31,681 nt of DNA from a virus (Duplodnaviria > Caudoviricetes), in the IMG/VR virus record IMGVR_UViG_3300035670_000888, positions 1-31,681 of that record, one strand, 5' to 3'. The notes beneath the pieces were generated by a model, which did not search any database, was not told where the DNA came from, and saw nothing but the letters and a program-made list of their open reading frames with translations. Position 1 is the first letter of the stretch. Each line of letters opens with the position of its first letter. A program made the position numbers and the translations under genes. Of the stretch, positions 5,115-26,585 are shown piece after piece.

Positions 5115-5683
5115 GAATCAGTCCGTAGGTTGCGCTTCTGCACGCGGGCCCGCTTGCGCAACAGCGACGCCTGCTCGCGTAGCCCTTGCACCTTCTGCGT
5201 GACGTTGAACGTTTGCCCGTCAGTCGTGAAGTCGAAACAGCGCGACTCGCGGGTTGCCCACTGCTCTAGCAGTTCGGCTGCTGCTCCATAGATATCGTAG
5301 CTGCGAGCAGTCAGGTAAAGAGCCGTGCCGCCCGTATCGGAGTCGAAGTCAAAGATGCCGAGCTGGTAATCGGCGGTGTAGGTTGCGGTGCCCCGATCGT
5401 CTCCTACAGAGTCCTCGATGATGAACACGGCAGTACCGCTCGCAGCAGTCTCTAAGAAGCCGTAGGCCGAGCGAAGCCGGGTATAGATGACGCTACCCCC
5501 GCCGATGTAGTTCGGCTCGCGCAAGAGCTTGTGCCGAACCAAGTCCTGGCGGTGGCGGTCGAGCACCTGCTCGATCTGATTGTCGTCCCAGAAGTTGGCC
5601 GTGCCGATGGAATATTCGGCGGTGCCGGCGTAGGTCAGCGCACGCACGCGACTGATGTTGTCTGTCATTCCGCTACGGCTCAT
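5111..5683 (-). CDS. Head-tail connector/adaptor protein
   Basis: Start MSRSGMTD by ATGA overlap with the epimerase stop. C-terminal 'YDIYGAAAELLEQWA...FDFTTDGQTF' is adaptor-like. Confidence 0.7.
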   Translation of the reverse strand: MSRSGMTDNISRVRALTYAGTAEYSIGTANFWDDNQIEQVLDRHRQDLVRHKLLREPNYIGGGSVIYTRLRSAYGFLETAASGTAVFIIEDSVGDDRGTATYTADYQLGIFDFDSDTGGTALYLTARSYDIYGAAAELLEQWATRESRCFDFTTDGQTFNVTQKVQGLREQASLLRKRARVQKRNLRTDS

Positions 5684-6651: not shown

Positions 6652-7265
6652 GCCGTTACCTGCGCCCATTCCACTGAAGTCATGGCCTGCTCAAACATGA
6701 GCCGGTCCGTCATGCTTCGGCGCACCATATCGTCGCGCCCAACCGTTCCTTCCAAGTGCGTCATGCGGTAGCCCTCACGGTAGGCAACTGTCATACCGAG
6801 TGCGCGTGCCCTGGCAGCCAGATAGTCGTCGGCGAAGTAGTGAATCGGTAAGCTCGGCCCCATCTCACGCCACACATATCGGCGAAAGAACGGGAACTGC
6901 GAGCTGACGACCGGCGCCCAGTCTGCGCAGCCGGTAAGAATCCAGCCGCCCCCCATGCTTCCGGTCGCCAGCGTCGAGCCGTCGAGCAGGTCAATACGCG
7001 GCGCGGGGTAATAACCCGCATCAGCAGCTTCGCACGCTGCCTGCACCCATTCGGGCGCCATGAGAACGTCATCGGCAGCGAGCATGACGTATTCTCCTTC
7101 GGCGGCATCCATGCCGTCGTTCCATGCCTGGCCGATCGTGGTGCGCTCCTTGACAAGCACCAGCTGCAGATCATCGGCAGGTACGGTCGCGCGAAAGCTG
7201 GCAACCGTCCGCTCGCACATCTGCTCGCGTCCGCGAATCGTGGGCATGATGACCGATATGGTCAT
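6648..7265 (-). CDS. Glycosyltransferase family 2 (GT-A fold)
   Basis: 'ISVIMPT', 'GQAWNDG...GEYVMLAADDV' (DxD region), 'YFADDYL'; ATGA-coupled start. Confidence 0.88.
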   Translation of the reverse strand: MTISVIMPTIRGREQMCERTVASFRATVPADDLQLVLVKERTTIGQAWNDGMDAAEGEYVMLAADDVLMAPEWVQAACEAADAGYYPAPRIDLLDGSTLATGSMGGGWILTGCADWAPVVSSQFPFFRRYVWREMGPSLPIHYFADDYLAARARALGMTVAYREGYRMTHLEGTVGRDDMVRRSMTDRLMFEQAMTSVEWAQVTA

Positions 7266-8440
7266 GCGATGACCTCGACAGGTGGCGCGTCGGTGCCGGC
7301 ATCTGCAGCCAGATCGTTCGCCATGCGCTCCAATGCCGGGCCCCAATAGTTCTGCGTAATCTCGTCAGCGTCGTACCGCATCGCGAACGCACGCGCCTGG
7401 CTCCGCAGGGAAGCGTCGCCACGATGCGCGTAAGAAGCCTCCAGAGCCTCTAGAACGCCGTCGCAGGTGGGCAGGTATTGGTAAGCCTGCATCGGAGTCA
7501 GAACGCGCTCATGGGCCGTTACGGTCCATCCTGCTCCGACGAGCTCGGGCATCGCTGTCCAGCCACCGACGATGACCGGGGTGCCGCATGCCTGAGCCTC
7601 GATGATCGGCACGCCAAAACCTTCGCCCATCGTCACGGACGACAGCACATCCATCGCGGAATAGATACCTGCCATGACACCGTCACCGTATCCCATGATG
7701 TTGCGGTACTGATCGCAAACCTTGACCCGGTCCTCTGGGATACCGAGGCTGCGCATGATGCCAGGCAGGTCAAGCCCTTCCATCTCCGTTCCGAGATGCG
7801 TGTGGATGTAGAGCATGGCGTCGTTGTGCTTCCGCTGGAACTGTGCAAAGGCTTCCAGCTGCGTCGGCAACGCCTTACGGCTCGGCACGCCCTTATTCGC
7901 AGCGACGATGCCGACGATGAACGCATCCTGTGGGAAACCAAGCTTGCGCCGCGCTTCGTCCTGCGGCATCGGCGCATAGACGTTCGTATCCACTCCGTGC
8001 GGAATGTAGATCGGGTCCATGCCGGCTTCGATAGCCAGGCTTTCTGCGTGCCGGCTGTAGACCATCGGGTGCCATGCATGCTTGACGCTGCGCTGGACGG
8101 GTTCGGGAATCGGGTCATGATCAACCGGGAACCACGGAGCCCAACGTGCCCCGCTCGCCGTAATGCGCTGCGGGTCGAGTACCCACGCATCAACGAGCGT
8201 AATCACGACGTCTGCGCCGGCATCCTTGGCATGCTGCGCAACGACGTCCATGCCGTACGGATGAAACGCCTTTGGGTACACAGTCATGCCCTGCCACGTA
8301 ATGCTCGCGCCTTCCAGCCCATAGAACGCGCTGATCGAGACGTCGTGTCCGAGGTCACGGATGCGCGGGGTAAAGATGCGCGTTTGCACTCCGTAGCCGG
8401 TTGCAGTCCACGGTGCGTTGCTGTGCCAAAGAATGTTCAT
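7262..8440 (-). CDS. Glycosyltransferase family 4 (GT-B fold)
   Basis: 'TGYG', 'IPHGVDTNVY', EX7E motif 'EGFGVPIIEAQACGTPVI'; GGGGG RBS before ATG 8440. Confidence 0.92.
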   Translation of the reverse strand: MNILWHSNAPWTATGYGVQTRIFTPRIRDLGHDVSISAFYGLEGASITWQGMTVYPKAFHPYGMDVVAQHAKDAGADVVITLVDAWVLDPQRITASGARWAPWFPVDHDPIPEPVQRSVKHAWHPMVYSRHAESLAIEAGMDPIYIPHGVDTNVYAPMPQDEARRKLGFPQDAFIVGIVAANKGVPSRKALPTQLEAFAQFQRKHNDAMLYIHTHLGTEMEGLDLPGIMRSLGIPEDRVKVCDQYRNIMGYGDGVMAGIYSAMDVLSSVTMGEGFGVPIIEAQACGTPVIVGGWTAMPELVGAGWTVTAHERVLTPMQAYQYLPTCDGVLEALEASYAHRGDASLRSQARAFAMRYDADEITQNYWGPALERMANDLAADAGTDAPPVEVIA

Positions 8441-8442
8441 CG

Positions 8443-8553
8443 GTTGCCCCCGATCGGCCCCCTGGCAATAGAAGCGGCGAGGGAAAGCTGCCGGGGGCAA
8501 CGAAACAGCCTTGTCAGCGAACGCTGTACGGTGCGTCGCCTATCCCTTGCCGC
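8443..8553 (-). promoter_or_regulatory. Structured leader of the GT4 gene with an RBS-sequestering inverted repeat
   Basis: Perfect 10-bp IR 8443-8452 / 8492-8501 covers the RBS. An interleaved 11-bp IR lies at 8474-8484 / 8543-8553. Confidence 0.45.
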
Positions 8554-8564
8554 CATGCTGCTCG

Positions 8565-8957
8565 TCACACCTTTCCGCCGACGTAGTGGAGAACCACCTT
8601 GCCGTTGGTCGGCGTGCCGTTGTTCTGCGCGGTCATGCACAAGCCAACCCATTCGCCGCTCTCGATCACGGCGATATCCTCGTTCAGCGGCATCGTCTTG
8701 GGCACATTCTTGACCCAATGATCTTGGGTGCCGCCAACCGGTCCGAATACGGTGCCGGTCACGATCGGCGTGCCGCTTGCTGAATACTTCTTGAGCGCAA
8801 CGCGGAACGATGTGTTGCTCTCAGTATCAGCATCGTTGATCGCTACTGCTTCCAGCAGCGTTACTGCTCCGCCTGCGTGCGATGCGTAAAACTCGAGCAC
8901 GTCGCACTGCTTCTGCTGGATATCCAGCGTGAGCGTGTTTACGTCAAACTGCGCCAT
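8565..8957 (-). CDS. Putative capsid decoration protein, paralogue 2
   Basis: 130 aa; shares MAQFDVN, VTLL.A.A.N, GGT.DHW, GE and HYV.GK with 9019..9405. Confidence 0.65.
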   Translation of the reverse strand: MAQFDVNTLTLDIQQKQCDVLEFYASHAGGAVTLLEAVAINDADTESNTSFRVALKKYSASGTPIVTGTVFGPVGGTQDHWVKNVPKTMPLNEDIAVIESGEWVGLCMTAQNNGTPTNGKVVLHYVGGKV

Positions 8958-8961
8958 GACG

Positions 8962-9016
8962 ATGACGGTTGGGTGGCCGACCTCTATCCGAGCAGGTCGG
9001 CCACCGATACCGTCGT
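8962..9016. terminator. Strong hairpin (terminator/attenuator-like) between the decoration paralogues
   Basis: Perfect 12-bp stem ggtggccgacct / aggtcggccacc plus outer gacggt/accgtc; no U-tract. Confidence 0.55.
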
Positions 9017-9018
9017 GC

Positions 9019-9405
9019 CTACGCCTTTCCCTGCACGTAGTGAATCGTCACCATGCCCCGCGTCTGCGAGCCGCCGTCCACCGTGGCGTATGCCAGGCTC
9101 AGGCACTCGCCCTCGTCAATGGTGATGTAGTCACCGTCGAGCGAGAACGACTTGGGAAGGGTGTCGGTCCAGTGATCGGCGGTGCCGCCGAGCGAGCCGA
9201 CGGTGCCAGCGATCACCGTGCCGGCGCTGGTGCGCTTGTGAAGCGCGAGGGTGAAGGTAGCCGTTCCGGACGTCGTCGCGTGATTGACCGCGTACGCGTC
9301 GAGAAGGGTCACCTTGCCGCCCGTACCGCTGTGCTTGTAGACGATCACGTCGTCTGCTGCAGCGGGCATCGGAACGGTAATGCTGTTCACGTCGAACTGT
9401 GCCAT
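9019..9405 (-). CDS. Putative capsid decoration protein, paralogue 1
   Basis: 128 aa, beta-rich, immediately after the major capsid gene; good RBS (GAAAGGA). Confidence 0.7.
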   Translation of the reverse strand: MAQFDVNSITVPMPAAADDVIVYKHSGTGGKVTLLDAYAVNHATTSGTATFTLALHKRTSAGTVIAGTVGSLGGTADHWTDTLPKSFSLDGDYITIDEGECLSLAYATVDGGSQTRGMVTIHYVQGKA

Positions 9406-10270: not shown

Positions 10271-10285
10271 GGCGTGCTTCCTTTC

Positions 10286-10933
10286 CTAGTCGGTGTTCAC
10301 GACGCCACCACCGAGCCTCCGAGCCGCTTCCGGCTCAAAGATTCCGGCATTGCCGCCGAACAGCCGTGCCCGCTTCTGCGCATCAGTCTCACCCAACGGC
10401 TCGCTCCGAGCGGGGTTCGCAGGGCTACCTGCCGACTGCTGCACCTTGAGGTACGGCTTCTGCTTGATGAGGCGTCGCAGTGCGTTGTCGAGGCTTTCGG
10501 GATCTGGCCTGCCAGAATCGTCGTACTGCAGAGCGTCACGGTCCAGCATGGCAACGGCGACTTCTGCATCCACGATGCCAAGCGCGTTCGAGCGCAAGGC
10601 GACGGCACTCTCAAGTGCCAGGCGGCGAGTCGTCGAGTCACGTTCAGCTAGCTCCGCTTCCAGCTCCTGCAGTCGCTTAGCTTGCCGCTCCGCTTCGGTG
10701 AGCTCCGCTTCGTCGCGCTGCTTCTGGGCCGCTTCCATGTCTCGGAACCGTGCCCTCCACTTGATCGCATCGTCGCGTGCTTCCTTCAGTGCGCTCGCCA
10801 ACGCCTGCTTGTCAGGGTCCTCAACGGTCTCCGTCGAAGGCTGCTCGGGCGTCACACCCTCGTTCTGCTCAGTGCCCATCTCGGGCTCGGGAACGTCAGG
10901 CGTCACACCTGCGTCCTCGCTGTTGGTATCCAC
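10286..10933 (-). CDS. Head scaffolding protein
   Basis: Acidic N-terminus, coiled coil 'ELTEAERQAKRLQELE', 'LIKQKPYL'. Start placed at GTG 10933 behind a GGGGG RBS; the frame is open to 11047, so the start is uncertain. Confidence 0.8.
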   Translation of the reverse strand: MDTNSEDAGVTPDVPEPEMGTEQNEGVTPEQPSTETVEDPDKQALASALKEARDDAIKWRARFRDMEAAQKQRDEAELTEAERQAKRLQELEAELAERDSTTRRLALESAVALRSNALGIVDAEVAVAMLDRDALQYDDSGRPDPESLDNALRRLIKQKPYLKVQQSAGSPANPARSEPLGETDAQKRARLFGGNAGIFEPEAARRLGGGVVNTD

Positions 10934-11093: not shown

Positions 11094-11142
11094 GGCTACA
11101 TCGCTTGCATCCTAGACTCAACCGGCTATGCTTGTTGCCACA
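11094..11142 (+). promoter_or_regulatory. Promoter/operator element A (TTGCAT-16-TATGCT)
   Basis: 36/49 ungapped identity with 28629-28677; followed by GGAAGGA RBS and ATG 11171. Confidence 0.75.
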
Positions 11143-11170
11143 AGGCCAATCAAACGGAAGGAATCACATC

Positions 11171-11569
11171 ATGGCCAGGCAGCTTCTTAGGGATATCCAC
11201 CCAATCTGCGCAGATATCCTCAACGGCGAGCACGACGACATTCTCGACGCGCTTGCGCAGAGCATCCGCGCTCGGGAAAAGTCGGTGCGCTACGAGAGCG
11301 GAATCGCCAAGGACCGTTTCGTGACCATCGCTGCTGACGCTGACCCGCGCGTTGCCGGCAAGACGGCCCGCGTTCTGAAGGTCAATCGCAAGACAGCCAG
11401 CATCCGCATCATCGGCGACCCCGAATGGGTGTCATGGAACGTCAGCCTCAACCTGCTCACGATGGAGCCAACGACGAAGGAACTGCTGGATGCGTGGGCG
11501 GATACGACGCACGACGACTACGAGAACAAGGTGCGCCGCGGTCAGGCCACGCCGGAGACTGCAGCATGA
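11171..11569 (+). CDS. Hypothetical protein, possibly with an SH3/KOW-like barrel
   Basis: First gene after promoter A, RBS GGAAGGA; 'AGKTARVLKVNRKTASIRI'. Confidence 0.7.
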   Translation: MARQLLRDIHPICADILNGEHDDILDALAQSIRAREKSVRYESGIAKDRFVTIAADADPRVAGKTARVLKVNRKTASIRIIGDPEWVSWNVSLNLLTMEPTTKELLDAWADTTHDDYENKVRRGQATPETAA

Positions 11570-12077: not shown

Positions 12078-12328
12078 CCGAAACGACGTTCGACGAGCCA
12101 CCCGAGCCAACCGGCTTCCTTGTTGTGCTGCCCGGCAAGCGCGGTAAGCGATTCGGTATGGGCGTTGGCCCGTTCGAGGACCGCCAGGCAGCGCAGGATT
12201 TCGCAGATGAGTTCATGTGGAGAGTGGATGTGACGGACGGTGGGCTGTTGATCGGTGCGATGTATGCTCCCGACTTCATCTTGTCCGTCGTACTTGACAC
12301 GCAGGAAAGGAAAGCTCGCGGTGAGTGA
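12074..12328 (+). CDS. Hypothetical protein (84 aa)
   Basis: ATGA-coupled; 'VGPFEDRQAAQDFA' motif. Confidence 0.65.
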   Translation: MTETTFDEPPEPTGFLVVLPGKRGKRFGMGVGPFEDRQAAQDFADEFMWRVDVTDGGLLIGAMYAPDFILSVVLDTQERKARGE

Positions 12329-12524
12329 TGACGTCAGCCGGCACATTCAGCACGTCACGGACTGCGCTCGCGCACGCGAGGAAGCAGAGACCGATTTCAT
12401 AGAAGCGGTCCTGCATGCCGCTCGCTCGGGTGCATCGCAGCGGCAGATCGGAAACGCATGCGGTCTGTCGCACGCGCGCATCGGTCAGATCGTTCGCAAG
12501 TACGAGTACCTGCACCGCTACTGA
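12321..12524 (+). CDS. Small helix-turn-helix DNA-binding protein
   Basis: GTG after AGGAAAGG; 'GASQRQIGNACGLSHARIGQIV' HTH. Confidence 0.8.
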   Translation: MSDDVSRHIQHVTDCARAREEAETDFIEAVLHAARSGASQRQIGNACGLSHARIGQIVRKYEYLHRY

Positions 12525-12579: not shown

Positions 12580-12724
12580 AGCGTGTAGTGCCTGGCTTCG
12601 CCTTCTTGCGCGGTGCGTTCTTGACGTTGCGCGGCGTGGGCTGCACGGAAGGCACGATACGGATACCGCTCGGGCCGGCACCAATGCGGTCACCGAACTT
12701 CTGCGGATTAGCTTTCCGCCTCAC
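12578..12724 (-). CDS. Small basic peptide (48 aa) coupled to MuF-ART
   Basis: GTGA overlap with the MuF stop; MRRKANPQKFGDRIGAGPSGIRIVPSVQPTPRNVKNAPRKKAKPGTTR. Confidence 0.5.
   Translation of the reverse strand: MRRKANPQKFGDRIGAGPSGIRIVPSVQPTPRNVKNAPRKKAKPGTTR
12602..12616 (+). repeat. 15-bp direct repeat, right copy
   Basis: Identical to 11030-11044. Confidence 0.8.
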
Positions 12725-14505
12725 AACTGCTCCAGCTGGACAACAGTTTTCCTTACCACGCTTCCATCATAGCGGCGAAAGGGAACATCCGTAACCGTAC
12801 GCAGCACGCGGAACTTTGAGTTGCGCGGCAGTAGGAGCTCGCTTTCCTCGAGGTCGAGTCCAAAGTCGGACGGGTTGATGTAGGCACCGCGCCTGGCGCG
12901 GATTTCCAGCACGATATCCCCGACGTCACCGCGCTGCGCAAAGTCGAGCGCAATGCGCGGGTCGAAGCTCGTGCTGACGTATTGGTCCATCTGCACGGTT
13001 GCCCCGGTCGGCATGTTGTCGCGAATCCATGCGTCGCGCCCCTGCCAATCGAGTCCATCAATGTCGTCGGGGTCCACGTAGAAGCTCATGCCTCGCCATA
13101 CCGTTACCGGCTCGTCGAAGTCACCAGCCTTGCCGATCGCCGAATCTATGTTTGTTACCGCTTCGTCCACAAACGCGCTCGGTGGGTACTGACCGCGCAG
13201 CGTTCCGTTGATGTTGTCGTAGCCGAGCTCTGAGTACTCGGTTATTGACCCAAACTCGTCGTCTGTGAGGCTGTTCGTCCAGTTGCGAGTTGGCGACGAC
13301 GGTTCAATAGCTTCGCGCACATCATCATCAGCGTATGCCCAATTTGTTTCGTCGCGCGCGGGCAGCTGCACGGCGGGCTGTAGTTCCGTGGGCTGCGGAG
13401 CCGTGCCGCGTCGGGCATCAGCGTTGCGCAATGCTGCGGTTAGATTGCCAGCGCTGGTACTTGGGCCCCAAACCGGCGACTGCCGCTGCACCACAACATC
13501 GTCGAGCGTGATTCGGTTACCCCGCCAGGCTTCGTACACGCGATCACCGAGGATGCTCCGCTGATCGGCAGCAGACAGCTTCTTGAACTCGTCCTTGCCA
13601 GGTGCGATGCGCACGGTTTCGGGGGTGTCACCATATCCGAGCTCGTCCCACGACTTGGTAAGCGGAGCCATTGTGCAACGGCAGTTCGGGTGCGTCGCCA
13701 TGATTTCATCGAGCGTATGCTCGCTGCCATGCTGTGCCCAACATGCCGAGCATGTGCGGGTGCTTAGATCAGCTACCCATATCCAGCCGTTCACGACGTC
13801 TGCGTTGGCAGCATATTCGGCACGGCTCGCTTCGCGGTATGCACGCAGGGTTTCTGTACGTGCGATCGTCAATGCGCGTGTCAGGTTGCCGCCGAGCGCA
13901 TCCCGAATGTCGCGGGCAATCTGCCGGGGGTTGCGACCGAGCGCAATACCGCTGACCAGCGAATCCCCAACGCTGTCAGCCGCTGAAGGTGCCAGGCCGG
14001 AAAGGAGTTGCGTGATTGCGCCGGCAGGTTGCGTCGCTGCCGTAACCCGTTCGATCGCGCCCGTTGCAAGTCGCACTTCCTCCGGTATCAGGTCGGTGAC
14101 CTCGACCCCACCATCCTCGAGGATGACACCGGACGGCGATACCGATATGCCGGCAGGCAAAGCCGTATCCATCATGGCCAGGGCAGCTTCACGACCCTGC
14201 TCGCTCGCGTTGCCGATTGCCCCACCAATGATCAACTGCGCCTGTTGCCCGAAGCTGCTGATTTCGTCGAGCACTCGGGTTCGCAGCACCTGCAGTCTGC
14301 CCTCCCGCGTAATCAGGTACTGCCATTCGTTCTGCGGCACGCCTTGTTCGCGAAACTGCTGCAGCCGGCGCCGAACAGCATCCAGGTCGTCTTGGATGCC
14401 CTTATACGCCGCGCCATAACTTCGCGTCAGGCTCGCTGCAGCTGCACGGTCGCCGCGCAGAAGCCGCTCGCGGAACTCCTGCGCCTGCTCATAGATGGTT
14501 GCCAC
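12721..14505 (-). CDS. MuF/SPP1 gp7-like minor head protein fused to a VIP2-type ADP-ribosyltransferase
   Basis: MuF motifs 'RALTIARTETLRA', 'RTCSAC', 'HPNCRC'. ART motifs 'YDNINGTLR', 'VWRG', 'YVSTS', 'ESELLLPRNSKFRV' (R-S-E triad). Confidence 0.9.
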   Translation of the reverse strand: MATIYEQAQEFRERLLRGDRAAAASLTRSYGAAYKGIQDDLDAVRRRLQQFREQGVPQNEWQYLITREGRLQVLRTRVLDEISSFGQQAQLIIGGAIGNASEQGREAALAMMDTALPAGISVSPSGVILEDGGVEVTDLIPEEVRLATGAIERVTAATQPAGAITQLLSGLAPSAADSVGDSLVSGIALGRNPRQIARDIRDALGGNLTRALTIARTETLRAYREASRAEYAANADVVNGWIWVADLSTRTCSACWAQHGSEHTLDEIMATHPNCRCTMAPLTKSWDELGYGDTPETVRIAPGKDEFKKLSAADQRSILGDRVYEAWRGNRITLDDVVVQRQSPVWGPSTSAGNLTAALRNADARRGTAPQPTELQPAVQLPARDETNWAYADDDVREAIEPSSPTRNWTNSLTDDEFGSITEYSELGYDNINGTLRGQYPPSAFVDEAVTNIDSAIGKAGDFDEPVTVWRGMSFYVDPDDIDGLDWQGRDAWIRDNMPTGATVQMDQYVSTSFDPRIALDFAQRGDVGDIVLEIRARRGAYINPSDFGLDLEESELLLPRNSKFRVLRTVTDVPFRRYDGSVVRKTVVQLEQL

Positions 14506-14539: not shown

Positions 14540-15874
14540 TTACTGCTCTGCAGCACCACGGTCGAACGCTGTCAGCAACGCGGAACCAATATTTGTCTGC
14601 TCCGAGCTACTGCGCTCGGCTTCGGCGTCAGGGTCATACCCAAGCTCGGATAGCGTCGTGGCCTGGCTGACGCCTGCACGCTGCAGGGCTTCGGCTGCCA
14701 TTGCGCCGGTCATCGGGTCGTCGGGGATGATTTCGGGCCAACGGATTTCCGCGTACAGGTCCGGTCCATAACCACCGAGCTCACACAGCCGGCGCGAAAG
14801 CTCCATCATCATGCCGCCATACAGCCTGCGCTTTACTTCCGTCTTGCGCACAAGCGGGCCGTACAGGATTTTCAGAGCCAGGCCGGAAAGCTGACCGATG
14901 TTTTCGAGGTTGCCCGCCGTGATTGCCGGCACGCGGCTGATTTCGTGCAATGCCGCTTTGACGGTGTTGAACAGCTCGATGTGATCAGCGACCGTGGCGC
15001 GTGGCTCGAGAAGGCTGACTTCGCTATCAGGGTCAGGCAGGACGATCGCCTCGTCGGGGCCAACATCGAGGTCCCCATCGCCCACGCCCTTCGCCACAAC
15101 TTTCGGGTGACCGTGGATGCGCTGTACGCGCGCAGCGTTCGACATTACGCGGTTTATCGCCAGCTGCGTTTCCAGCACATCATCTGTAAGGTCGGGCCGA
15201 CCCCAATAGGCGTTCGGCTCGGGCAGGTTCTGGCAATCCACGATCGGCGCCCACGAGAACCGCCAGGGCGTTTCCGCGATCGTTACCCACTGCCCGCCGA
15301 TGCGCTCACGGCTTTCTTGGTCCACGATCAACCATTGCGCGCCGTCACGGTGAATCACCTGCCGCTTGCCATACTCGCGCCCGGCATCGTCGAGCATCGC
15401 CCATTGCAGAACGTACGCCTCAACCATCCCGACGTCCTCGGGACTCCACATCACACGCAACATCTCGGGGTCCACAACCAGCAGGCGCGGCAGCGTGCCA
15501 GGCTGCGAGCCTTCGGGCGCCGGCAGGATTCGGATTGCCGCGTTGCCGGCAACGGCGCCGTTCGTTGCGGCTCCCTGCCACAACAGCATGTCGCGATTCG
15601 CTTCGTACACTCCGTACAGCCAGCTTGTGACGTCGTCGTTTACCGCCTCGCCGTCCATCACTTCGATGCGAACGTCTTGGCCAAACAGCGCATCCACGCC
15701 GGTATCAACGACGAGCCCTGCCAAGTTCAGTCGAATGTTGTCGTCCGGCTCACCGGGCAACACACGCAGCGGCTTTGGCTGATCGCCACGGTAGATCTGC
15801 CAGGCACGATGAATCCGCAGGTGCCTTTGCCTATCCGCTTCAGCGGTGGCCATGAGAAGCGCATCGAGCGACAC
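14540..15874 (-). CDS. Portal protein (SPP1 gp6-like)
   Basis: 444 aa between terminase and MuF; 'NLAGLVVDTGVDALFG', 'LSGLALKILYGPLVRK'. Confidence 0.9.
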   Translation of the reverse strand: MSLDALLMATAEADRQRHLRIHRAWQIYRGDQPKPLRVLPGEPDDNIRLNLAGLVVDTGVDALFGQDVRIEVMDGEAVNDDVTSWLYGVYEANRDMLLWQGAATNGAVAGNAAIRILPAPEGSQPGTLPRLLVVDPEMLRVMWSPEDVGMVEAYVLQWAMLDDAGREYGKRQVIHRDGAQWLIVDQESRERIGGQWVTIAETPWRFSWAPIVDCQNLPEPNAYWGRPDLTDDVLETQLAINRVMSNAARVQRIHGHPKVVAKGVGDGDLDVGPDEAIVLPDPDSEVSLLEPRATVADHIELFNTVKAALHEISRVPAITAGNLENIGQLSGLALKILYGPLVRKTEVKRRLYGGMMMELSRRLCELGGYGPDLYAEIRWPEIIPDDPMTGAMAAEALQRAGVSQATTLSELGYDPDAEAERSSSEQTNIGSALLTAFDRGAAEQ

Positions 15875-15943
15875 GGTCGTGCAGTCTAGCGTTTATTGCG
15901 GCGCCGAGCGGCGCAGCGTTGGCGATGGGTCTATACTCGGCGT

Positions 15944-16151
15944 TGCGATCAACCGGATACGGTCGCCGATGCCAACTTGCGTACGCATCGAGCAGGGTAG
16001 AGGCGTCGGCCTTTCCTCCTTCGGGCCGGCGCCTCCCCTGCACATTGCCTGGCGTAATCCACTATCATCTGCCATGCGCTGCGGGGAACTGCGGCGCGAA
16101 GCTGCGGAGCGGTCACGTGCTTCCTTCCCGCGTGACCGCTCCGCGCTGTTT
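15944..16151 (+). ncRNA. Candidate multi-hairpin small RNA with anti-SD loops
   Basis: TATACT at 15932-15937, then six consecutive stem-loops. G-U pairs and a GGAA tetraloop favour the + strand. Loops include UUUCCUCCUUCG and UGCUUCCUUCCCG. Ends in a 14-bp perfect stem followed by GCUGUUU. Confidence 0.55.
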
Positions 16152-16989
16152 ATGCCCAGCGAGCGAGCGGTGGGTCGTCCACAAGCTGCGGGCGCTGCGG
16201 AAACTTCCGCCATACCTGCGACGGTCCGAGCCTCGGCAACCCATCCTTGCTGTAGCGGATGTAGAAACATCCCGGCCATTGTTTCACCATCGCTTCGGCA
16301 CGACCGAGCCGGTTGGTGTGCGTGGTGTCTGTGCACCCGCCAGGCTGCTTTGAGGTCGAGGGTTGTTCGTGCACCACGCGCCGGCTGATCAGCGTGCAAT
16401 AGCCCTCGGTGAGTACTTGCAGCGAATAGTCCGTGTCATCCATTAGGTGAGCTCGGAATCTGGCGTGCACATCAGTCTTTACCAGCTGCACGCAATAGAT
16501 CATCTGATTTAGACCAACGGGCGGCTTGCGGTCGTATCCGAAAGCGAACGCGCTGTTCATAACGCTCGCGCCGGCAACGTTGCTGAACGAATCCGAAACA
16601 AGTTCCATGAAAGCCAGGGCAACGCTCGCAGGGATTTCTATGCGCTTGCCTTTGCGTCTGATGCGGAAGCGTCGCATATCGTCGTCAATCATCCATACGT
16701 ACGGGGTGCCGGCTGCTCGTGCGTAGTCCATGATGAAGTTGCGGGCGTACGCAATGCCACGCTCGTCATCGTCCAGCACCATCACGCGATCGGCGCCGTA
16801 CCGCTCAACGTATGCATCAGCGTCATGCGGCTCGACAACGATGCGGTGCGGCACGCCCGATGCGTGAAGCAGGTCGGGCGTCGTTGCTGTATCCGCTCGG
16901 TGCCGCGACGGGACAAACACCGGATGATGTGGGTGCTGCAGCTGCTCGATGTTGTCGAGCGCATTTTGTATCGCTGCGAGAATGTCCAT
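16150..16989 (-). CDS. TET-associated-type / GREB1-like glycosyltransferase, paralogue 2
   Basis: 'PVFVPSRHR', 'IVVEP', 'GIAYARNFI', 'WMIDDD', 'DDTDYSLQVL', 'GGCT'; parallels 18707..19645. Confidence 0.75.
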   Translation of the reverse strand: MDILAAIQNALDNIEQLQHPHHPVFVPSRHRADTATTPDLLHASGVPHRIVVEPHDADAYVERYGADRVMVLDDDERGIAYARNFIMDYARAAGTPYVWMIDDDMRRFRIRRKGKRIEIPASVALAFMELVSDSFSNVAGASVMNSAFAFGYDRKPPVGLNQMIYCVQLVKTDVHARFRAHLMDDTDYSLQVLTEGYCTLISRRVVHEQPSTSKQPGGCTDTTHTNRLGRAEAMVKQWPGCFYIRYSKDGLPRLGPSQVWRKFPQRPQLVDDPPLARWA

Positions 16990-16996
16990 GTTCCCC

Positions 16997-18253
16997 CTAA
17001 AAACGTGGTGCTTTGACGCCGCGCACGCCCGCTGGCCTGGCTAGATCGAGGTCCGTTAGTGCCCACACCAATGCGTCGAGCCTGTCGGGTGACGTCGGGC
17101 TATCAGGCGTCCACGTCACAAGCTGTTCCTCAAGTTCGTTGAACACCTGCGCGTGGGCAACCCTGCTTTGTTCGTACAACGCTGCTACCGGCTCGGCGCG
17201 CACGCGCTTGCCCCGCGTAGCGTGCACGAGCTTTACCGGCACGTTCGGGTCCACCGTACGCAGCACCGTCTTGACCATATCCCCGCCCTGATTAGCTTCG
17301 GCAACGATGCGGTCAGCCTGGTGTTCGTGATACGCCTCGATCGCACGGCGGGCCCACCCGTCAGGGCTTGCGCGGCATGTGTAATCGGCGAGCACGTATC
17401 CGTTCGGTCCGTTCCTGCCGGCAACGACGATGCCGGTCTCGTCAGAGTCCTCGCCGCTCGTAACTGCCGGATCAATGGCGACGACGATGCGTTGCAACTC
17501 TGGCTCGCGCTTCGGCCACGCGCTTACCGCAGCTTCCAGCATGCGCCGATTCCATAACGCGCCTGGCACATCATCAAGGATTTCGGCGTACAGCTCCTGC
17601 CGGCCAAGCCTCGTGCCCTCGTACTTGGCGAGGATGCGCTCGAGGAAAGCCGGCGCGAGATTGTCGGCGTTCTCAAACGTGCTGCCCCGCGTGACGACGG
17701 TGGTGTCTGCAGCGACGAGGTCACGTATCTCTTTGGTCGGGCGCGGCGTGGTGGTGACGATGCAACGCGGGTCGGTACCAAGCCGCAATCCAAACTGCAG
17801 CTGGTCCCACGCTTCGGGATACCGCCAGGCTGCGAGCTCGTCGCACCAGGCCGCGTCATGCTGCGGTCCACGCAAGCGGTCCGGCTCGTCGGCGGAATAC
17901 GTCGTGCACAGCGCGCCTTCGGGGGCAATGGCAGAGCCTTTAGGGAACGTGATACGCCTCTTAGAAGGCTCGTACGTCGGCTGTACGGCGTCGTCCGCGC
18001 ATACAGCCAACAGGCCGCTCTCGCCCTCCACCATAACGTCGCGCACGTCGGCAGCAGTCGGACCCACCAATGCAATGCGTTTTGCGCCGTGGGCAATGCG
18101 CCAGCGCACCCATTCGGCTCCCGTTCTCGTCTTGCCCCAACCTCTGCCGGCCAGAATCAGCCATGCACGCCATTCGCCTTCCGGCTCGATCTGCTCCGGC
18201 CTGGCCAAACCATCCGGCGCATACCACGCAAGCGAGTACGGAAGGGTTATCAC
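16997..18253 (-). CDS. terL: Terminase large subunit
   Basis: Walker A 'AGRGWGKT', 'LRGPQ', Walker B 'WCDE', 'TTTP'; nuclease 'AIDPA' and 'SPDRLDALVWA'. Confidence 0.96.
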   Translation of the reverse strand: MITLPYSLAWYAPDGLARPEQIEPEGEWRAWLILAGRGWGKTRTGAEWVRWRIAHGAKRIALVGPTAADVRDVMVEGESGLLAVCADDAVQPTYEPSKRRITFPKGSAIAPEGALCTTYSADEPDRLRGPQHDAAWCDELAAWRYPEAWDQLQFGLRLGTDPRCIVTTTPRPTKEIRDLVAADTTVVTRGSTFENADNLAPAFLERILAKYEGTRLGRQELYAEILDDVPGALWNRRMLEAAVSAWPKREPELQRIVVAIDPAVTSGEDSDETGIVVAGRNGPNGYVLADYTCRASPDGWARRAIEAYHEHQADRIVAEANQGGDMVKTVLRTVDPNVPVKLVHATRGKRVRAEPVAALYEQSRVAHAQVFNELEEQLVTWTPDSPTSPDRLDALVWALTDLDLARPAGVRGVKAPRF

Positions 18254-18714
18254 CCCGTTGCGGCACGCTTCCGCCGACGTGCGGCGAGCTCGTCCAAGTG
18301 CTCGACCAGCCTGCGGTTCGCTTCCTCCGGTGTTACCTGCTCGACACGGACGGGTCCACCATCCTCACCTGTCAGCGCGAGCATCTGCTTCCTGCCCCAG
18401 CGTTGCGCGTTCGTGCGCTCTAGATACCACGCTGCAGCCTGCCAGCTTCCATCCTGCGCGGCTTTCTGAATCAGGGCAACGCTGCGCACTTCGGCAACTG
18501 CCTTTGCGCTTTCTACTTCCTTGCGGAACTCGCGATAGGGCTCCGGCGCGTCATCGGCTTCGCCTTTCTGCATCCAGCGGTAGAACGTGGCCTCGTTGAT
18601 GCCCGCGTAACGTGCCGCAACCTCCTGATAGTTGCCCCCGCGAATCGCGGTCACGATGCGGTCCTTGACCTCCGGCGTCAGCTTCGTTGGGCGTCCCGTC
18701 TTGCGCTCAGCCAT
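18250..18714 (-). CDS. terS: Terminase small subunit
   Basis: 'GRPTKLT' then HTH 'AARYAGINEATFYRW', 'WQAAAWYLER', 'LTGEDGGPV'; overlaps terL. Confidence 0.88.
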   Translation of the reverse strand: MAERKTGRPTKLTPEVKDRIVTAIRGGNYQEVAARYAGINEATFYRWMQKGEADDAPEPYREFRKEVESAKAVAEVRSVALIQKAAQDGSWQAAAWYLERTNAQRWGRKQMLALTGEDGGPVRVEQVTPEEANRRLVEHLDELAARRRKRAATG

Positions 18715-19645
18715 TCGTGCGCTCGCTTTCATGCTCGTTCAGCAGCGCGCGCAATGCCGGCGCCTTGACCTCGTCTGCCACCTTCTGCAGCTGCATCCCG
18801 TAATCGTCCGTGCCGGCTGCGGCCAGGGCATCCCAATCTATATCCGAGCGACGCTTCAGCGGCGTGTCAAACTTTGTCCACGAATCTCTAATCCAATGCT
18901 GCGGGCGTCCGTACTTGCGGGTGGTCGTGACCACGTACGGCCAGGCACGTTCCAAACTGCGCGCCATATCGAGGCGACCGTCCCCACGGTAAAGCTCGGA
19001 CGTGTTGCCACCCTTCATCGTCATAGTGGCCTGCTTGTTGATCAGGAACGCGTTGATGCAAACCGTGCACATGCCGGCTGCGAGCACCTGCAAACACAAG
19101 TCCGTGTCCTCGTTGTACCGACCGCGCCAGCGCTGCGGAATGCTGTTGTCAATCAGCAGGCAGCTATAGACGTGCGTGTTCACGTAAAACGGGGGCATAC
19201 CTGTCTTGCCGTGCATGCCGGCGCCCGCGAACGTGAGGTACTGCAATCCGGCAACGGCGATGTTCTCGTAGCGGTCTACGAACTGCTCGCTGATGTGCAA
19301 CGCAGCACCCGCATCGCAGGGTATCCGCTTCTTGCGGTAGCGGCGGTAGAAGCCTTTGATGTTGTCGTCAATAATCCAATGCCGAGCGTGCCCCTGCTCC
19401 TTAGCGTGCTCCCAGCACCAGTTGCGAGCAGGGATGCTCCCGAGCCCAAGATTCTGGAACGGCAGTACCATGATGCGGTCGTCGCCATAGCGTGCCGCGT
19501 ATAGCTCAAACTCCTGCGGCTCGACGACGATGTAAAACGGGCAGCCGTCCGCTTCAAGATGATTCGCTGTGTAGCAGACGTCGTGCCGACCCTTGCTGAT
19601 GACGTACACCGGGTACTGCGGCACAAGCTTGCCAGGCGCGTTCAT
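18707..19645 (-). CDS. TET-associated-type / GREB1-like glycosyltransferase, paralogue 1
   Basis: 'YPVYVISKGR', 'IVVEPQE', 'PARNWCWEHA', 'HWIIDDNI', 'WRGRYNEDTDLCL', 'MKGGNT'. Confidence 0.8.
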   Translation of the reverse strand: MNAPGKLVPQYPVYVISKGRHDVCYTANHLEADGCPFYIVVEPQEFELYAARYGDDRIMVLPFQNLGLGSIPARNWCWEHAKEQGHARHWIIDDNIKGFYRRYRKKRIPCDAGAALHISEQFVDRYENIAVAGLQYLTFAGAGMHGKTGMPPFYVNTHVYSCLLIDNSIPQRWRGRYNEDTDLCLQVLAAGMCTVCINAFLINKQATMTMKGGNTSELYRGDGRLDMARSLERAWPYVVTTTRKYGRPQHWIRDSWTKFDTPLKRRSDIDWDALAAAGTDDYGMQLQKVADEVKAPALRALLNEHESERTNG

Positions 19646-20292
19646 CCCAAAAACCTCAGTGAGCTCGGGTCCTCCTTAGCCTTCGGTGGCCACCATAGAC
19701 TCTTAGTGCGCTCTGTTATCTGAATCCCAAGCCGCTTCGCAAAGTCCTGGCGGTCAGCCTCGCTGTCGAAGCTCATGATGATCTTCGTCGGTGCGCCGGC
19801 TGCATAATCGTATTCCGGCATGCTCAACCATTCCTTCGCGGCATCCTCGTCTGGGATTTCGTGCTTCGGACGGGTAACCATTGCCAGGGCTGCGAGTTGG
19901 TCCTCGTCGAACCCAGAGCCGGCGAGCCCATCGTCGTCGAGCTGTGCAACCTCACGCAGCAGTTCCGTGAGCGCTCGGTCGTCAACGATTGCGAGGTTGC
20001 TGATCTCGTTATCGCTGGCGATCAGCTTCAGCGCTTTCGGGTCGTCACGCGCGATCGGCAGGCGAATCACAGGCACTTCCTTCATGCCCATTTCCTGCGC
20101 GGCTTCCACAACACCGTGGCCTGCGAGGATTGTGTCGTCCTCTGCTACGACGATGTTTCGGTAGATGCCGTAGGTCTCGATACTCGTGATGATGTGCTGC
20201 AGCTGCTCTTTCGGATGGTTCCGATAGTTGCGCGGATGCGGCTTTAGGCTGCTCAGTTTCACGACGACGCTGTCGTGTGTGGTGACGTTCAT
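19642..20292 (-). CDS. ParB/Srx-like N-terminal domain protein
   Basis: 'LKPHPRNYRNH', 'ILAGHG', 'IASDN'; upstream of the terminase, a common position. Confidence 0.85.
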   Translation of the reverse strand: MNVTTHDSVVVKLSSLKPHPRNYRNHPKEQLQHIITSIETYGIYRNIVVAEDDTILAGHGVVEAAQEMGMKEVPVIRLPIARDDPKALKLIASDNEISNLAIVDDRALTELLREVAQLDDDGLAGSGFDEDQLAALAMVTRPKHEIPDEDAAKEWLSMPEYDYAAGAPTKIIMSFDSEADRQDFAKRLGIQITERTKSLWWPPKAKEDPSSLRFLG

Positions 20293-20937: not shown

Positions 20938-20980
20938 CGTGTGTGCTCCTTCCCTGCGCTGCATAAACCTCGCACACAAT

Positions 20981-21455: not shown

Positions 21456-21485
21456 TCCTTCCTCCTATCGCATGCGGGCTCGCCG

Positions 21486-21899: not shown

Positions 21900-22207
21900 A
21901 CTGCTTGTCCTTCCTGCAGCTGGATTCGCTGCGTTGATTTCAGTATTGCGATCACGTCGTCCCAATCTGCAGGACGCCATAGATACGTCTCTACGTCGGC
22001 AGCGCGCAATGCGTCAAGCCATTCGCGCTGCGCCAGGCTTACGCGTCCTCTGTCCGTCTTGAGCTCGGCCATGATTAGCCGATCGCGCACCAATGCAAGG
22101 TCGGGCCAACCCGGTTCGCTGCGCCGGCTGTCGTGGGTGTGGTACACGCGCCAACCGAGAAGCCTGGCAGCGTCCACAACCTGCGCTTGCCATTGCCGTT
22201 CGGTCAA
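21896..22207 (-). CDS. VRR-NUC domain nuclease (resolvase-like)
   Basis: TTG start; 'ERQWQAQVV...GWPDL...AELKTDRGRVSLAQREWL'. Confidence 0.88.
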   Translation of the reverse strand: MTERQWQAQVVDAARLLGWRVYHTHDSRRSEPGWPDLALVRDRLIMAELKTDRGRVSLAQREWLDALRAADVETYLWRPADWDDVIAILKSTQRIQLQEGQAV

Positions 22208-22355: not shown

Positions 22356-22841
22356 TTATTGCCCTTTGTGTGCGTACCTGATGACGCTTACCACAGTTGC
22401 AATGGAAACACCAGCTGCCGCCGCCGTGCGAACGTAGCGGTCGCGGGTATCCATATGCTCGCGCGCACTCCACTCACGCAGGATTTTCATGATGCCTGTG
22501 CCCCGTTGCGGCGGCGTAATAGGCGGTCGGGATGCTTCACGCTTCTTGCGTTCTGCGTAGTTGAGCCGGCTGCGATGGTGACGGTAGGTGCGAACGCATC
22601 CGGGGCTCCCGCACGTTCGCTGCCTGGCACCTTTGACCGGAAACTTCCCGCATACGGCGCACATTTCGCCTTCGCGGTCCGCTTTGATATTCAGCAGCGC
22701 AGATCGTGAGTACAGATTTGTTGCATACGCGCCGCCGCTTTGCCCATGCTGCCGAATGGCATCCTTGCCGATGCGATGCAACGTGCGCTGACTGACGCCG
22801 AGCAGTCGTGCGGCTTCGCTCGTTGGCACTAGCTCGTCCAT
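22356..22841 (-). CDS. HTH plus Zn-finger DNA-binding protein
   Basis: 'TSEAARLLGVSQRTL'; CAVC...TCGSPGC. Confidence 0.7.
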   Translation of the reverse strand: MDELVPTSEAARLLGVSQRTLHRIGKDAIRQHGQSGGAYATNLYSRSALLNIKADREGEMCAVCGKFPVKGARQRTCGSPGCVRTYRHHRSRLNYAERKKREASRPPITPPQRGTGIMKILREWSAREHMDTRDRYVRTAAAAGVSIATVVSVIRYAHKGQ

Positions 22842-23296
22842 TACCGCGCCTCCCATCGAATCTTGTCAATCGGCAGCTGGCCAGCGTCGTCGCGGGCGCG
22901 GCTCGGGCATGACCACGGACGCCCATTGACCGTGCCGATTATTTTCCATCCTGCAGCATCGAGCGACGTGCCAGGCTCGTCGGTGCGGGTATAAGTAATC
23001 AACCGCGTGTATCCCAACGCTTGCGCAGCGCGCCACGCCGCCCCGTAAAGCTTTGAGCATGCGTTCGCGCATCCATCAGTAGCTACCCGATTGACCTCTA
23101 GCGTGAAGCCGTCGTCGAAACCTCGAGCTACCGGCCTGCCCACCATCGCAACGCCGCGCAACGTATCCGACGAATCCACCACACCCAGATTGAACACCGA
23201 GCCGGCAGGGGGCGGCAGATGCCGGTGCATATTGCGCACGTATTCTTTCGCAGTGCGTTGGCGTACAGGCACAATGCGTAACCGTTCCTGCTTCAT
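22841..23296 (-). CDS. Mom-like (XF1762-type) GNAT-fold protein
   Basis: 'HRH', 'GVAMVGRPVAR', 'LEVNRVAT', 'NACSKLYGAAWRAA', 'ITYT...EPGTSLDAAGW'. Confidence 0.8.
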   Translation of the reverse strand: MKQERLRIVPVRQRTAKEYVRNMHRHLPPPAGSVFNLGVVDSSDTLRGVAMVGRPVARGFDDGFTLEVNRVATDGCANACSKLYGAAWRAAQALGYTRLITYTRTDEPGTSLDAAGWKIIGTVNGRPWSCPSRARDDAGQLPIDKIRWEAR

Positions 23297-24258
23297 GGCA
23301 CCTGCCCGAACAATGACAACTGCTGCAGGCGTTCGCTCGCGAGGTCTAGGTAGGAAGGGTTGAGCTCGATACCGATTCCCCTGCGTCCGAGCATGCGTGC
23401 AACCGCCATTGTGGTGCCACTACCGCAGAATGGGTCGAGGACGATATCGCCGTCCTGTGTACTAGCCTTGATACACCGTTCGGGCAGCTGCGGCGGGAAC
23501 GTCGCGAAGTGCGCACCTGCATATGGTTTCGTCGTAATCCTCCACACGGTGCGTGCATTTCTGCCGGCGCCAGGCACATGCCGTTCAGTCGTACCGCTGC
23601 CACCGCTGCGCGCGTGGTATTCCGCACCGCCTTGTCTACCTGCGAAGCCGTTGCCGCTCGCATAGCCCGAATCCGGCTCACGGATCGCGTCGGCGTCGTA
23701 GTAATAGCGTTCCGACTTGGTGAGCAGAAACACGTATTCGTGCGCCTTTGTCGGACGATCACGCACGCTTTCCGGCATGGCGTTCGGCTTATGCCAGATA
23801 ATGTCCGAGCGCAGATACCACCCGTCATCCTGCAGCGCGAAAGCCACCCGCCACGGAATCCCAACTAGGTCCTTGTGCTTACAGCCTGCAGCCGTACGAA
23901 CGATGGATTGCGTGCGGGCAGCTTTCGGACCCCCGCCACGATGCCCATTACCCATCAACGTGCTTGTGCTGCTCGGCGGGCCGGCACCACCTGCTGCATA
24001 TGAATCGCCAAGGTTCAGCCACAGCGTGCCGTCATCGCGCAATACGCGTCGCACTTCGCGGAATACGCACACGATGTTTCGCACGTACTGCAGCGGCGTG
24101 CTTTCTAATCCAAGCTGGCCAGGCTCGCCGTAGTCACGGAGTCCCCAATACGGCGGCGATGTGATGCAAGTTTGCACGCTGGCATCGGCGAGCGTGGCGA
24201 GCACCGTAACTGCATCGCCTTGATACAGCTGCACGTCTCCATCGTCGCGGGTCAGCAT
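23293..24258 (-). CDS. DNA methyltransferase (beta-class, N4-C/N6-A)
   Basis: Catalytic 'TSPPY' precedes SAM-binding 'VLDPFCGSGTT'; 'HFATFP'; TAATG-coupled start. Confidence 0.93.
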   Translation of the reverse strand: MLTRDDGDVQLYQGDAVTVLATLADASVQTCITSPPYWGLRDYGEPGQLGLESTPLQYVRNIVCVFREVRRVLRDDGTLWLNLGDSYAAGGAGPPSSTSTLMGNGHRGGGPKAARTQSIVRTAAGCKHKDLVGIPWRVAFALQDDGWYLRSDIIWHKPNAMPESVRDRPTKAHEYVFLLTKSERYYYDADAIREPDSGYASGNGFAGRQGGAEYHARSGGSGTTERHVPGAGRNARTVWRITTKPYAGAHFATFPPQLPERCIKASTQDGDIVLDPFCGSGTTMAVARMLGRRGIGIELNPSYLDLASERLQQLSLFGQVP

Positions 24259-24698
24259 TACGCTTCCCGACAGCCCCATCCCTGCCACTGCCGCGTTATG
24301 GGCCAAGCTGCGACCGCTACTGCGATCTGCTGCTGTGGCGTTGCGGTAGCTGGGTAGGGATACTTGGTAATCCGAGCTCCGTACGCATATGTCGAGCGGT
24401 ACATGCCCATCATGCCGATCCAGCGACCGTTCGGAAAGTGACGAGGGTTAGCGCCCGTTTCGCAGCGAGCAATCCTCCACGCCTTCTCCCACGTTCCCTT
24501 GCCGCCGATCTTGTCTACTCGGCGTCGGATTTCCCACGCGCGAGGGTTTGGTGGCCACGCTTGCGCGTCGCGCTTCGCCTGCTTCATGCACTTCGCTTTC
24601 GCCGGGCCCACATGTTTCTGGCACGGCTTCGCATCTGCTACGCCATTCGCACCGAGCGCGATAACGCCGGCAGCGATGATCGCGATGCCCATTTTCAT
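24258..24698 (-). CDS. Secreted Rpf-like lytic transglycosylase
   Basis: Signal peptide (MKMGIAIIAAGVIALGANGVADA); 'IARCETG', 'ATPQQQIAVA', terminal 'WQGWGC'. Confidence 0.72.
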   Translation of the reverse strand: MKMGIAIIAAGVIALGANGVADAKPCQKHVGPAKAKCMKQAKRDAQAWPPNPRAWEIRRRVDKIGGKGTWEKAWRIARCETGANPRHFPNGRWIGMMGMYRSTYAYGARITKYPYPATATPQQQIAVAVAAWPITRQWQGWGCREA

Positions 24699-25045
24699 CG
24701 TGCGTTCCTTCCGTAGTGTGAACTGAGCGACCGGGTCTCAAAGCAGTCCTCGAGTCCCGGCTCCTGCATGAGCAGTCGTGCATACCTGCTGTGGTAGTTG
24801 TTGTTGAGTTTGAAGTCGTCGCCCTGCGTTCGCAACGTATGCCGCCAACGCAGTACCTCAAACAACATCTTGACGCCGATGCGCCTGGCGCCGGCACGTC
24901 GTGCCCGATACGCCAGCTTCCGCAACTCGTCGTACACGTGTGGGTTCGCTTCATGGAACCGCTGAAACCGCTCGTCAATGCTGCGCTCGCGATTCATTGC
25001 GAACACCAGCTGCTCTGGCCATGCGCGTTCGTCGTGGGCGTTCAT
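24695..25045 (-). CDS. Hypothetical phage protein (116 aa)
   Basis: 'FQRFHEANPHVY...FKLNNNYHSRYAR'; ATGA overlaps. Confidence 0.7.
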   Translation of the reverse strand: MNAHDERAWPEQLVFAMNRERSIDERFQRFHEANPHVYDELRKLAYRARRAGARRIGVKMLFEVLRWRHTLRTQGDDFKLNNNYHSRYARLLMQEPGLEDCFETRSLSSHYGRNAR

Positions 25046-26559: not shown

Positions 26560-26585
26560 TCTGTTCTCCTTCCGTTTAGGTAAGC

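Follow-up and report, generated by a model that had tools for sequence, protein, structure and literature searches.

The locus described here raises the question of what is encoded between the portal gene and a glycosyltransferase gene of a tailed phage, where positions 15932-16151 fold strongly on the + strand, opposite to the late genes. The record analysed (the window; 31,681 nt) is a whole phage record of 31.7 kb, with a head-tail operon on the - strand that comprises terS, terL, TAGT glycosyltransferase, portal, MuF, scaffold, capsid and tail genes. The element is flanked by the SPP1 gp6-like portal gene (14540-15874, -) and by the TAGT glycosyltransferase gene TAGT2 (16150-16989, -), whose stop codon overlaps the 3′ end of the second of the two units described below. 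In the relative L180, TAGT2 is absent and terL adjoins the element directly; the relative G002 has terminal repeats at 35.7 kb. The host-linked nearest relatives are Chloroflexota: portal homologues at 43-45% are named so, and a contig of a Chloroflexi MAG shares the gene order terL, portal, MuF, scaffold, capsid and GT1 (32-55%). Roughly 40 relatives of the portal have an identity of at least 63%. A portal scan of bacterial genomes gave no matches. A 16S tail ending in CCUCCUUCC was found in none of 401 Chloroflexota genomes, many of which are without a 16S, by a search that detected 4 of 10 positive controls. No integrase or repressor was recognised in the window, so a role in lysogeny is unsupported. 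All counts of gene starts refer to genes called within this analysis (51 in the window).

Several other features of the genome were recorded. The MuF minor head protein (12721-14505, -) is fused to an ADP-ribosyltransferase domain (PF03496), and its C-terminal part is variable, with most relatives aligning over the first 370 residues only. An epimerase and two glycosyltransferase genes lie within the head-tail operon (5680-8500, -); the set is kept across relatives and in the Chloroflexi MAG contig (GT1), and virion glycosylation is possible. A ParB-like gene and two TAGT glycosyltransferase genes around the terminase genes (16150-20292, -), together with Mom-like and methyltransferase genes at 22841-24306, likely form a DNA modification set. 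Two tandem paralogues of ~130 aa are located 3′ of the capsid gene (8565-9405, -), are present in one or two copies in relatives, and gave no PHROG or Pfam match.

Folding of 15932-16151 gave -118.7 kcal/mol on the + strand (z -6.59), with none of 200 shuffled sequences as good, and -104.2 kcal/mol on the - strand (z -3.38). Among 572 tiles of 220 nt from both strands, the + strand element ranked first after GC correction. A sequence-only reading of this DNA had described six hairpins in one array behind a TATACT box. The box is found at 15932-15937 and five of the hairpins were confirmed by folding, and the remaining one (16050-16074) is unpaired as a local hairpin in the full-length MFE structure. 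Since this stretch contains the second -10 box, there are five hairpins in two units, not six in one. The element reads as two predicted RNA units, each behind its own -10 box and opposite to the late genes.

The first unit is a predicted RNA of three hairpins (15944-16045, +; z -4.43). Its -10-type box TATACT (+) has no -35 consensus; it is invariant in the window and in L001 and L180, two relatives at 90% portal identity that carry the element, and its flanks diverge. A TANNNT box is found at the same position in L002, L177, L007-L009 and L175. The first hairpin (15945-15966, +) is conserved in L001 and L180, the second occupies 15967-15990 (+), and the third (15992-16041, +) is built on a base of 6 bp with a bulge on the 5′ side and has the loop UUCCUCCUUC, which is not kept in these two relatives. 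The unit 1 loops of L001 (4820-4936) and L180 (563-677) are not of the anti-SD type and match no gene start of their own; the first of them, ACCGGAC, is complementary to a GUCCGGU immediately upstream of the second -10 box, with which it can pair. Loops with CCGGAC or GGAC are seen again in L002, L007-L009 and L175.

The second unit (16076-16151, +) is a predicted RNA of two hairpins. Its -10-type box TATCAT (16063-16068, +) was matched in the promoter scan as TGCACA-18-TATCAT and is TATGAT at the same place in L001 and L180. In the alignment of the three phages, each -10 box lies 6-7 nt upstream of its hairpin set. Hairpin A (16076-16097, +) consists of 9 bp with two invariant G-U pairs and a variable tetraloop (GGAA, GAGA or UCAA). 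Hairpin B, previously placed at 16104-16144, is present and extends to about 16100-16147 (+); its long stem has one bulge, and its MFE loop CUUCCUUCC (16120-16128, +), which is the complement of a tag, GGAAGGA(A), is fully open (opening cost 0.0). Over the five hairpins the loops are GAUA/AACCGGAUACG, UUGC, UUCCUCCUUC, GGAA and CUUCCUUCC. The U tail is weak (UGUUUAU in the window, CUCAUU in both relatives), and the 3′ end of unit 2 is provisional. Unit 2 of each of the three phages contains three copies of the motif CUGCGG (16079-16108 in the window). A TANNNT box of the portal gene (15883-15888, -) stands 7-8 nt before its GTG, back to back with the unit 1 box. This portal box is present at 10 of 10 loci examined, and the gap between it and the RNA box is 43-45, 22-23 or 14 nt among relatives. 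The portal start is without an SD and is likely leaderless.

Covariation, one of the checks named in the sequence-only reading, was found in unit 2. The unit is kept in L001 and L180 with compensatory changes in the stems, and the core of the CUUCCUUCC loop is unchanged in three of three sequences, with one extra C in both relatives. In the 29 pairs, 98.9% of the cells are paired, with three double and four one-sided changes counted over three sequences, two of them close. Hairpin B contains 20 pairs, three changed on both sides and three with one-sided G-U changes. The shuffle control reached the covariation of unit 2 in 12 of 500 cases, and slid structures fell to 24-58%. The RNA of L007/L008/L175 has double changes in 4 of 31 pairs. 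In a strain variant, the element has no changes in 213 nt, against 22 in 313 nt of TAGT2 (P 1.6e-5; recombination in TAGT2 could make this contrast too large) and 7 in 365 nt of the portal gene (P 0.05, borderline). Membership in a known Rfam family was not borne out, as neither the window nor eight related loci gave a gathering-score match. A covariance model of unit 2 revealed no further members in 947 kb; the next-best matches were the syntenic RNAs of L002 and L177 (E 0.03 and 0.17) and unit 1 of the window (E 2.2). Homology between units and lineages consequently rests on position and architecture. On the whole records G002-G010 the model gave no convincing match, the best one (E 0.025) not being the slot hairpin. 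BLAST of the element against annotated phages returned one chance match only. A pattern scan of viral contigs gave 69 stretches, none with the loop or flanks of the element; of the further scans, one gave only the contig of L001 and another gave 14, 13 of them seemingly unrelated. We regard the locus as a real, conserved two-unit phage non-coding locus of predicted RNAs.

The strand antisense to the late genes folds lower in 13 of 13 unit sequences and contains more G-U pairs in 12 of them (an equal number in one). As noted in the sequence-only reading, the non-canonical stem pairs are G-U on the + strand and mismatches on the - strand. That reading had also allowed for the late mRNA as the functional strand, with its GGA loops bound by CsrA; a phage repressor that also binds the tags would be a decoy or operator-like version of the same idea. 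The - strand loop does carry the tag sequence, and the - strand still folds. Nevertheless, the one-sided stem changes, which give G-U pairs on the + strand and mismatches on the - strand, and the strand bias favour the + strand; a protein would have to switch its specificity in every lineage; and one of 10 genomes from the order of the Chloroflexi MAG had CsrA (incomplete genomes; host uncertain). We consider protein binding to the late strand very improbable. Still less can be said for the GGA loop as the RBS of a 55-codon ORF (16116-15949, -). GGAAGGA stands 5 nt before the GTG of this ORF in the window, but in L001 and L180 the GTG is absent and no start codon follows the motif. The ORF has no PHROG or Pfam match and no synonymous variation in the strain variant, and we give this possibility hardly any weight.

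The hairpins might instead merely end or stabilise convergent transcripts, as a terminator or antisense element between terL/TAGT2 and a separately promoted portal gene, with incidental loop matches. In each of the three phages, hairpin B comes directly after the convergent gene's stop codon, the portal gene has a TANNNT box of its own, and the slot in other relatives is filled with ordinary small-gene cassettes. However, the late strand has no U run and the + strand only a weak one, and a terminator needs neither a conserved loop, nor a dedicated -10 box, nor a loop that changes together with tags elsewhere in the genome. Such a role appears improbable to us, and we return to the reading of the element as a regulatory RNA.

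The complement of the CUUCCUUCC loop, GGAAGGA, occurs 12 times in the window, against 2.2 expected. Outside the element, 8 of 11 sites precede a gene start, and all eight genes are small and non-structural. On the + strand, the tag at 11156-11162 precedes gene 11171-11569, the first gene behind a TTGCAT-16-TATGCT promoter, and the tag at 28683-28689 precedes gene 28697-28882, which has a TTGCAC-16-TAGGCT promoter. On the - strand, tags are located at 28516-28522 (gene 28507-28367), 26567-26573 (gene 26559-26134), 24706-24712 (the transglycosylase-like, or Rpf-like, gene 24698-24258), 21908-21914 (gene 21899-21525), 21456-21462 (the replication-initiation-like gene 21455-21123, where the tag abuts the ATG) and 20947-20953 (gene 20937-20335, with a TTG start). 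A variant tag, GGAAAGGA (12304-12311, +), with weak predicted binding, precedes a small HTH gene (12321-12524). Both bulged matches proposed previously, one at the Rpf-like gene and one at the gene that begins at 20937, are present. The tagged genes include the only two of the 51 called genes with a canonical -35/-10 promoter. Tags lie partly within repeated promoter-leader cassettes, and the sites are not independent. The two canonical promoters (11110-11170 and 28640-28696, +) share the leader CCGGC TA.GCT TGT.GCCACA...GGAAGGA; G002 has a repeated cassette of its own, TAATAAT...CATCCAGC...GACGAAAGG, before 4-5 small genes.

The tag of the window lineage differs by one base from the ordinary SD, GAAAGGA. 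In G001, 4 of 5 GGAAGGA sites precede a start (three at 6-8 nt and one 2 nt before an ATG, the fifth lying within a coding region). A stricter start filter undercounted the tags (5 in the window, 1 in G001). In 14 relatives without unit 2 (236 kb), none of 10 GGAAGGA sites precedes a start. The ordinary SD precedes 5 starts in the window and G001 together and 12 in the 14 relatives (Fisher 1.2e-4 for the comparison, which is not phylogenetically independent). In an accessibility-aware ranking of the 51 starts, the eight GGAAGGA genes took ranks 1-7 and 9. Most of the target sites are already open (predicted opening cost 0.3-3.8 kcal/mol), and the predicted net binding reaches -11 to -13 kcal/mol at the Rpf-like gene, 20937 and 11171.

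The tag and the loop were then compared across lineages. In other relatives, the slot between terL and portal contains a -10 box and two hairpins on the same strand, one of them short and the other long with a bulge on the 5′ side. Four starts of G002 have GACGAAAGG, which is matched by the G002 loop UCCUUUCGUC, and a one-base variant stands before a fifth. In G004-G006, TGACGAG precedes the orthologues of window genes 11171 and 12321 and is matched by the loop CCUCGUCA; the 11171 orthologues carry TGACGAGAGGA, which fits their own loop. The loop of G008, CACCUCCGU, matches ACGGAGG at 6 of 23 starts, including that of the 12321 orthologue (0 of 300 shuffles). The 12321 orthologues of G004-G006 and G008 thus carry the tag of their own lineage. 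With at least 7 contiguous pairs, the window seed matched 10 of 51 starts of its own genome and 5 of 19 in G001, compared with 0-3 in each of ten further sets; the G002 seed, at 8 pairs, matched 6 of the 57 starts in G002 and 0-1 in other sets. Seeds with shuffled letters equalled or passed the real count in 3 (window unit 2), 2 (G001), 0 (G002), 0 (G004), 3 (G005) and 0 (G008) of 300 cases. The signal in G004-G006 is weak, with 3-5 starts against 2-3 in non-cognate genomes. The assignment of each loop to its own phage was the best of all 24, and with four lineages its P cannot fall below 1/24. In the portal tree, each of the four lineages forms a starred clade of its own. Cognate and non-cognate genomes could not be told apart by a simple cut-off on duplex energy (-11).

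A genome-wide hairpin scan, blind to the slot, placed the slot hairpin first in 6 of 12 genomes or loci: in the window, G001, G005, G006 and G008, and tied in G004. In the window, the CUUCCUUCC loop ranked 1 of 40 with 11 hits and the UUCCUCCUUC loop ranked second with 7 hits, a count that shuffles of this unit 1 loop reached in 9 of 300 cases. The unit 1 loops of G001 matched none of 19 own starts. The scan missed the bulged hairpin of G002 and found no such hairpin in G003, G007, G009, L173 and L178 (the last begins inside the slot). In several relatives without the slot hairpin, small genes on the same strand fill the slot.

Matches of this kind could also arise from shared SD-likeness, if the RNA mainly hits host mRNAs, as a general anti-SD brake or means of host takeover, or decoys proteins that recognise the anti-SD. 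All loops have a CCU/CCUC core, the unit 1 loop of the window contains CCUCCUU, as does the 16S tail, and all of the 80 Chloroflexota genomes tested contain GGAAGGA-N5-9-ATG. The loop of two cluster K phages (see below) is still pyrimidine-rich, and its match to the start-associated sequences is lost. On the other hand, the loops match tag bases beyond those that pair with the 16S tail CCUCCUUUCU, and they track lineage-private bases outside the SD (GAC, TGACGAG, AC). Moreover, the GGAAGGA-start pattern has a density of about 2-21 per Mb in Chloroflexota, against 6 in the 31.7-kb window. Host mRNAs or host proteins as the main partner are therefore unlikely in our assessment, although this is the strongest of the competing explanations, and we continue with the phage's own starts as targets.

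The sequence-only reading had given the capsid gene as the headline target. The 13/14 complementarity between 16116-16129 and the capsid RBS (10273-10286, -) is exact, and 0.02 matches of this type are expected per shuffled genome. Only nine of the 14 bases are loop sequence; the other five belong to the stem, and freeing them would cost 9.7 kcal/mol. The capsid RBS is predicted to be occluded, its net energy with accessibility is -5.8 kcal/mol, outside the top 16 of 51 starts, and in relatives the capsid RBS shows no match to the loop of the same phage. The capsid is read as a secondary or incidental target.

The core of the first reading, a structured non-coding + strand RNA with an anti-SD loop expected to act at several phage RBSs, is supported by the strand bias, the covariation, the loss of the ORF start and the co-variation of loop and tag. 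We hold with moderate confidence that unit 2 encodes a trans-acting anti-RBS RNA, likely repressing the tagged early/middle non-structural genes. The predicted RNA would be transcribed from the second -10 box, and its CUUCCUUCC loop would pair in trans with GGAAGGA at the RBSs of eight of the phage's own non-structural genes and block their translation. The second anti-SD loop, in unit 1 of the window, may add to repression; this loop differs in the two closest relatives. The RNA may be late-timed and turn off early/middle genes as assembly begins. The back-to-back position of the RNA box and the -10-only box of the portal gene weakly suggests shared late activation and such an early-to-late shut-off.

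The same pairing might instead promote translation or stability, with the RNA acting as a surrogate anti-SD or as an opener. The tags mark genes behind strong promoters, for which high translation would be desirable for the phage, and start-associated sequences were originally proposed to aid initiation (PMC3203893, in the part available). Against activation, the target sites are mostly open beforehand, as given above, and the pairing occludes the SD itself, which makes repression the likelier sign. Pairing that covers the SD blocks 30S binding in known cases. C-rich loops that pair over the SD are described as acting in this way in the accessible part of PMC4615179. Activation is accordingly a poor prospect in our estimation, and repression is retained as the probable effect.

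Among known small RNAs, the cuckoo family (RSs0680/CcsR, Rfam ar7-type) resembles the element in its adjacent tandem hairpins, variable stems and pyrimidine anti-SD loop, as far as the available portion of PMC4615179 describes it. Cuckoo RNAs have 2-4 adjacent hairpins, and the units of three and two found here, with covarying stems, correspond to this. In contrast, CCUCCUCCC is present in every loop of the cuckoo RNAs, and here the anti-SD loop is a different one and is found in only 2 of 5 hairpins; the best Rfam score, that of ar7, is 21 bits against a cut-off of 60, and the window has 0 matches at gathering score. The element is also phage-borne and matched to private phage tags. Cuckoo RNAs are Hfq-bound in alphaproteobacterial hosts. 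The nearest host-linked relatives here are Chloroflexota, and a search of 10 genomes from the order of the Chloroflexi MAG found no Hfq (incomplete genomes; host uncertain). RNAIII of Staphylococcus and other UCCC-loop sRNAs are similar in that a C/U-rich loop is proposed to seed pairing with several RBSs (PMC4615179, same portion). Unlike RNAIII, the predicted unit 2 RNA is ~75 nt long, has one seed loop and no coding region, is phage-borne and would target the phage's own genes. The CsrB/RsmY sponges expose GGA loops, whereas the favoured strand here has UCC loops, with GGA on the + strand only in the non-conserved tetraloop and in the loop of the first hairpin.

P1 C4 and P4 CI are phage RNAs that control phage genes by base pairing. 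The same is described for the antisense RNAs P22 sar, lambda OOP, aQ and BTP1 STnc6030; in the part of the review available, each acts on one gene or operon, and most are encoded opposite the target (PMC12197685). Here, by contrast with the sar/OOP type, one short loop would address at least eight scattered starts. Instead of a long perfect complement opposite the target, the element is intergenic, with matches of 7-13 nt located 4-13 kb away. In the literature covered, largely without subscription papers, we saw no description of a phage RNA that matches the start tags of the phage encoding it.

A close parallel to the tags is provided by the start-associated sequences (SAS) of cluster K mycobacteriophages. 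According to the available part of PMC3203893, SAS are repeated oriented motifs at the RBSs of non-structural genes, with conserved bases beyond the 16S pairing; their partner (RNA or protein) was left open, and one reversed copy was noted in K1 phages. SAS are also present in cluster EF Microbacterium phages, their function being still unclear (PMC7302621, in the portion available). PMC13402561 makes no mention of SAS or sRNA. The tags of the window share the repeated, oriented placement at RBSs of non-structural genes (8 of 11 sites outside the element). They differ in that the SAS are constant, with a 13-bp consensus, GGGATAGGAGCCC or GGGAAAGGACCCC, in 10-19 copies, whereas the tags here have 7-10 nt, GGAAGGA(A) in the window, with variable flanks, and differ between lineages. 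BLAST against annotated phages revealed no sequence relationship between the element and K phages.

In Angelica (L221:38540-38680) and Anaya (L222:39776-39915), the reversed SAS of K1 falls within a hairpin loop; the hairpin is long and bulged and is preceded by a TAGACT box. Annotated gp92 of Angelica overlaps this hairpin, and in most other records fetched the region is intergenic. The hairpin region is conserved in 194 phage records, and nine aligned phages show double changes at 12 of 45 consensus pairs, with an anti-SAS loop in five of the nine. Both strands fold about equally, so no strand was called for the K element. A blind prediction, by which a changed loop should go with changed SAS, was not borne out: the loop is altered in Fefferhead, Syra333 and Hurricane, which still have 14, 14 and 15 copies of the SAS, and AnnaSerena has 10 SAS and no anti-SAS loop. 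Such tags can therefore be retained when no RNA matches them. The K element is analogous, not homologous, to the element in the window.

Taken together, these comparisons allow a broader proposal, which we put forward tentatively and at somewhat less than even confidence: a private RBS tag may address a class of the phage's own genes, and one small RNA that co-evolves with the tag through its loop may switch that class. The loop-tag pair would then be a lineage specificity code, which possibly blocks superinfecting kin, and the reversed SAS of K1 would be the gene for the SAS partner. If true, a phage regulon would be governed by a switch that is addressed by sequence and needs no protein, in a host group that is likely under-studied and in which Hfq was not found. 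The four natural loop-tag pairs would be possible orthogonal translational regulators. The proposal would also give a concrete answer to the function of SAS, open since 2011 as judged from the available parts of PMC3203893 and PMC7302621, and it points to cluster K1 phages on Mycobacterium smegmatis as a cultured test system.
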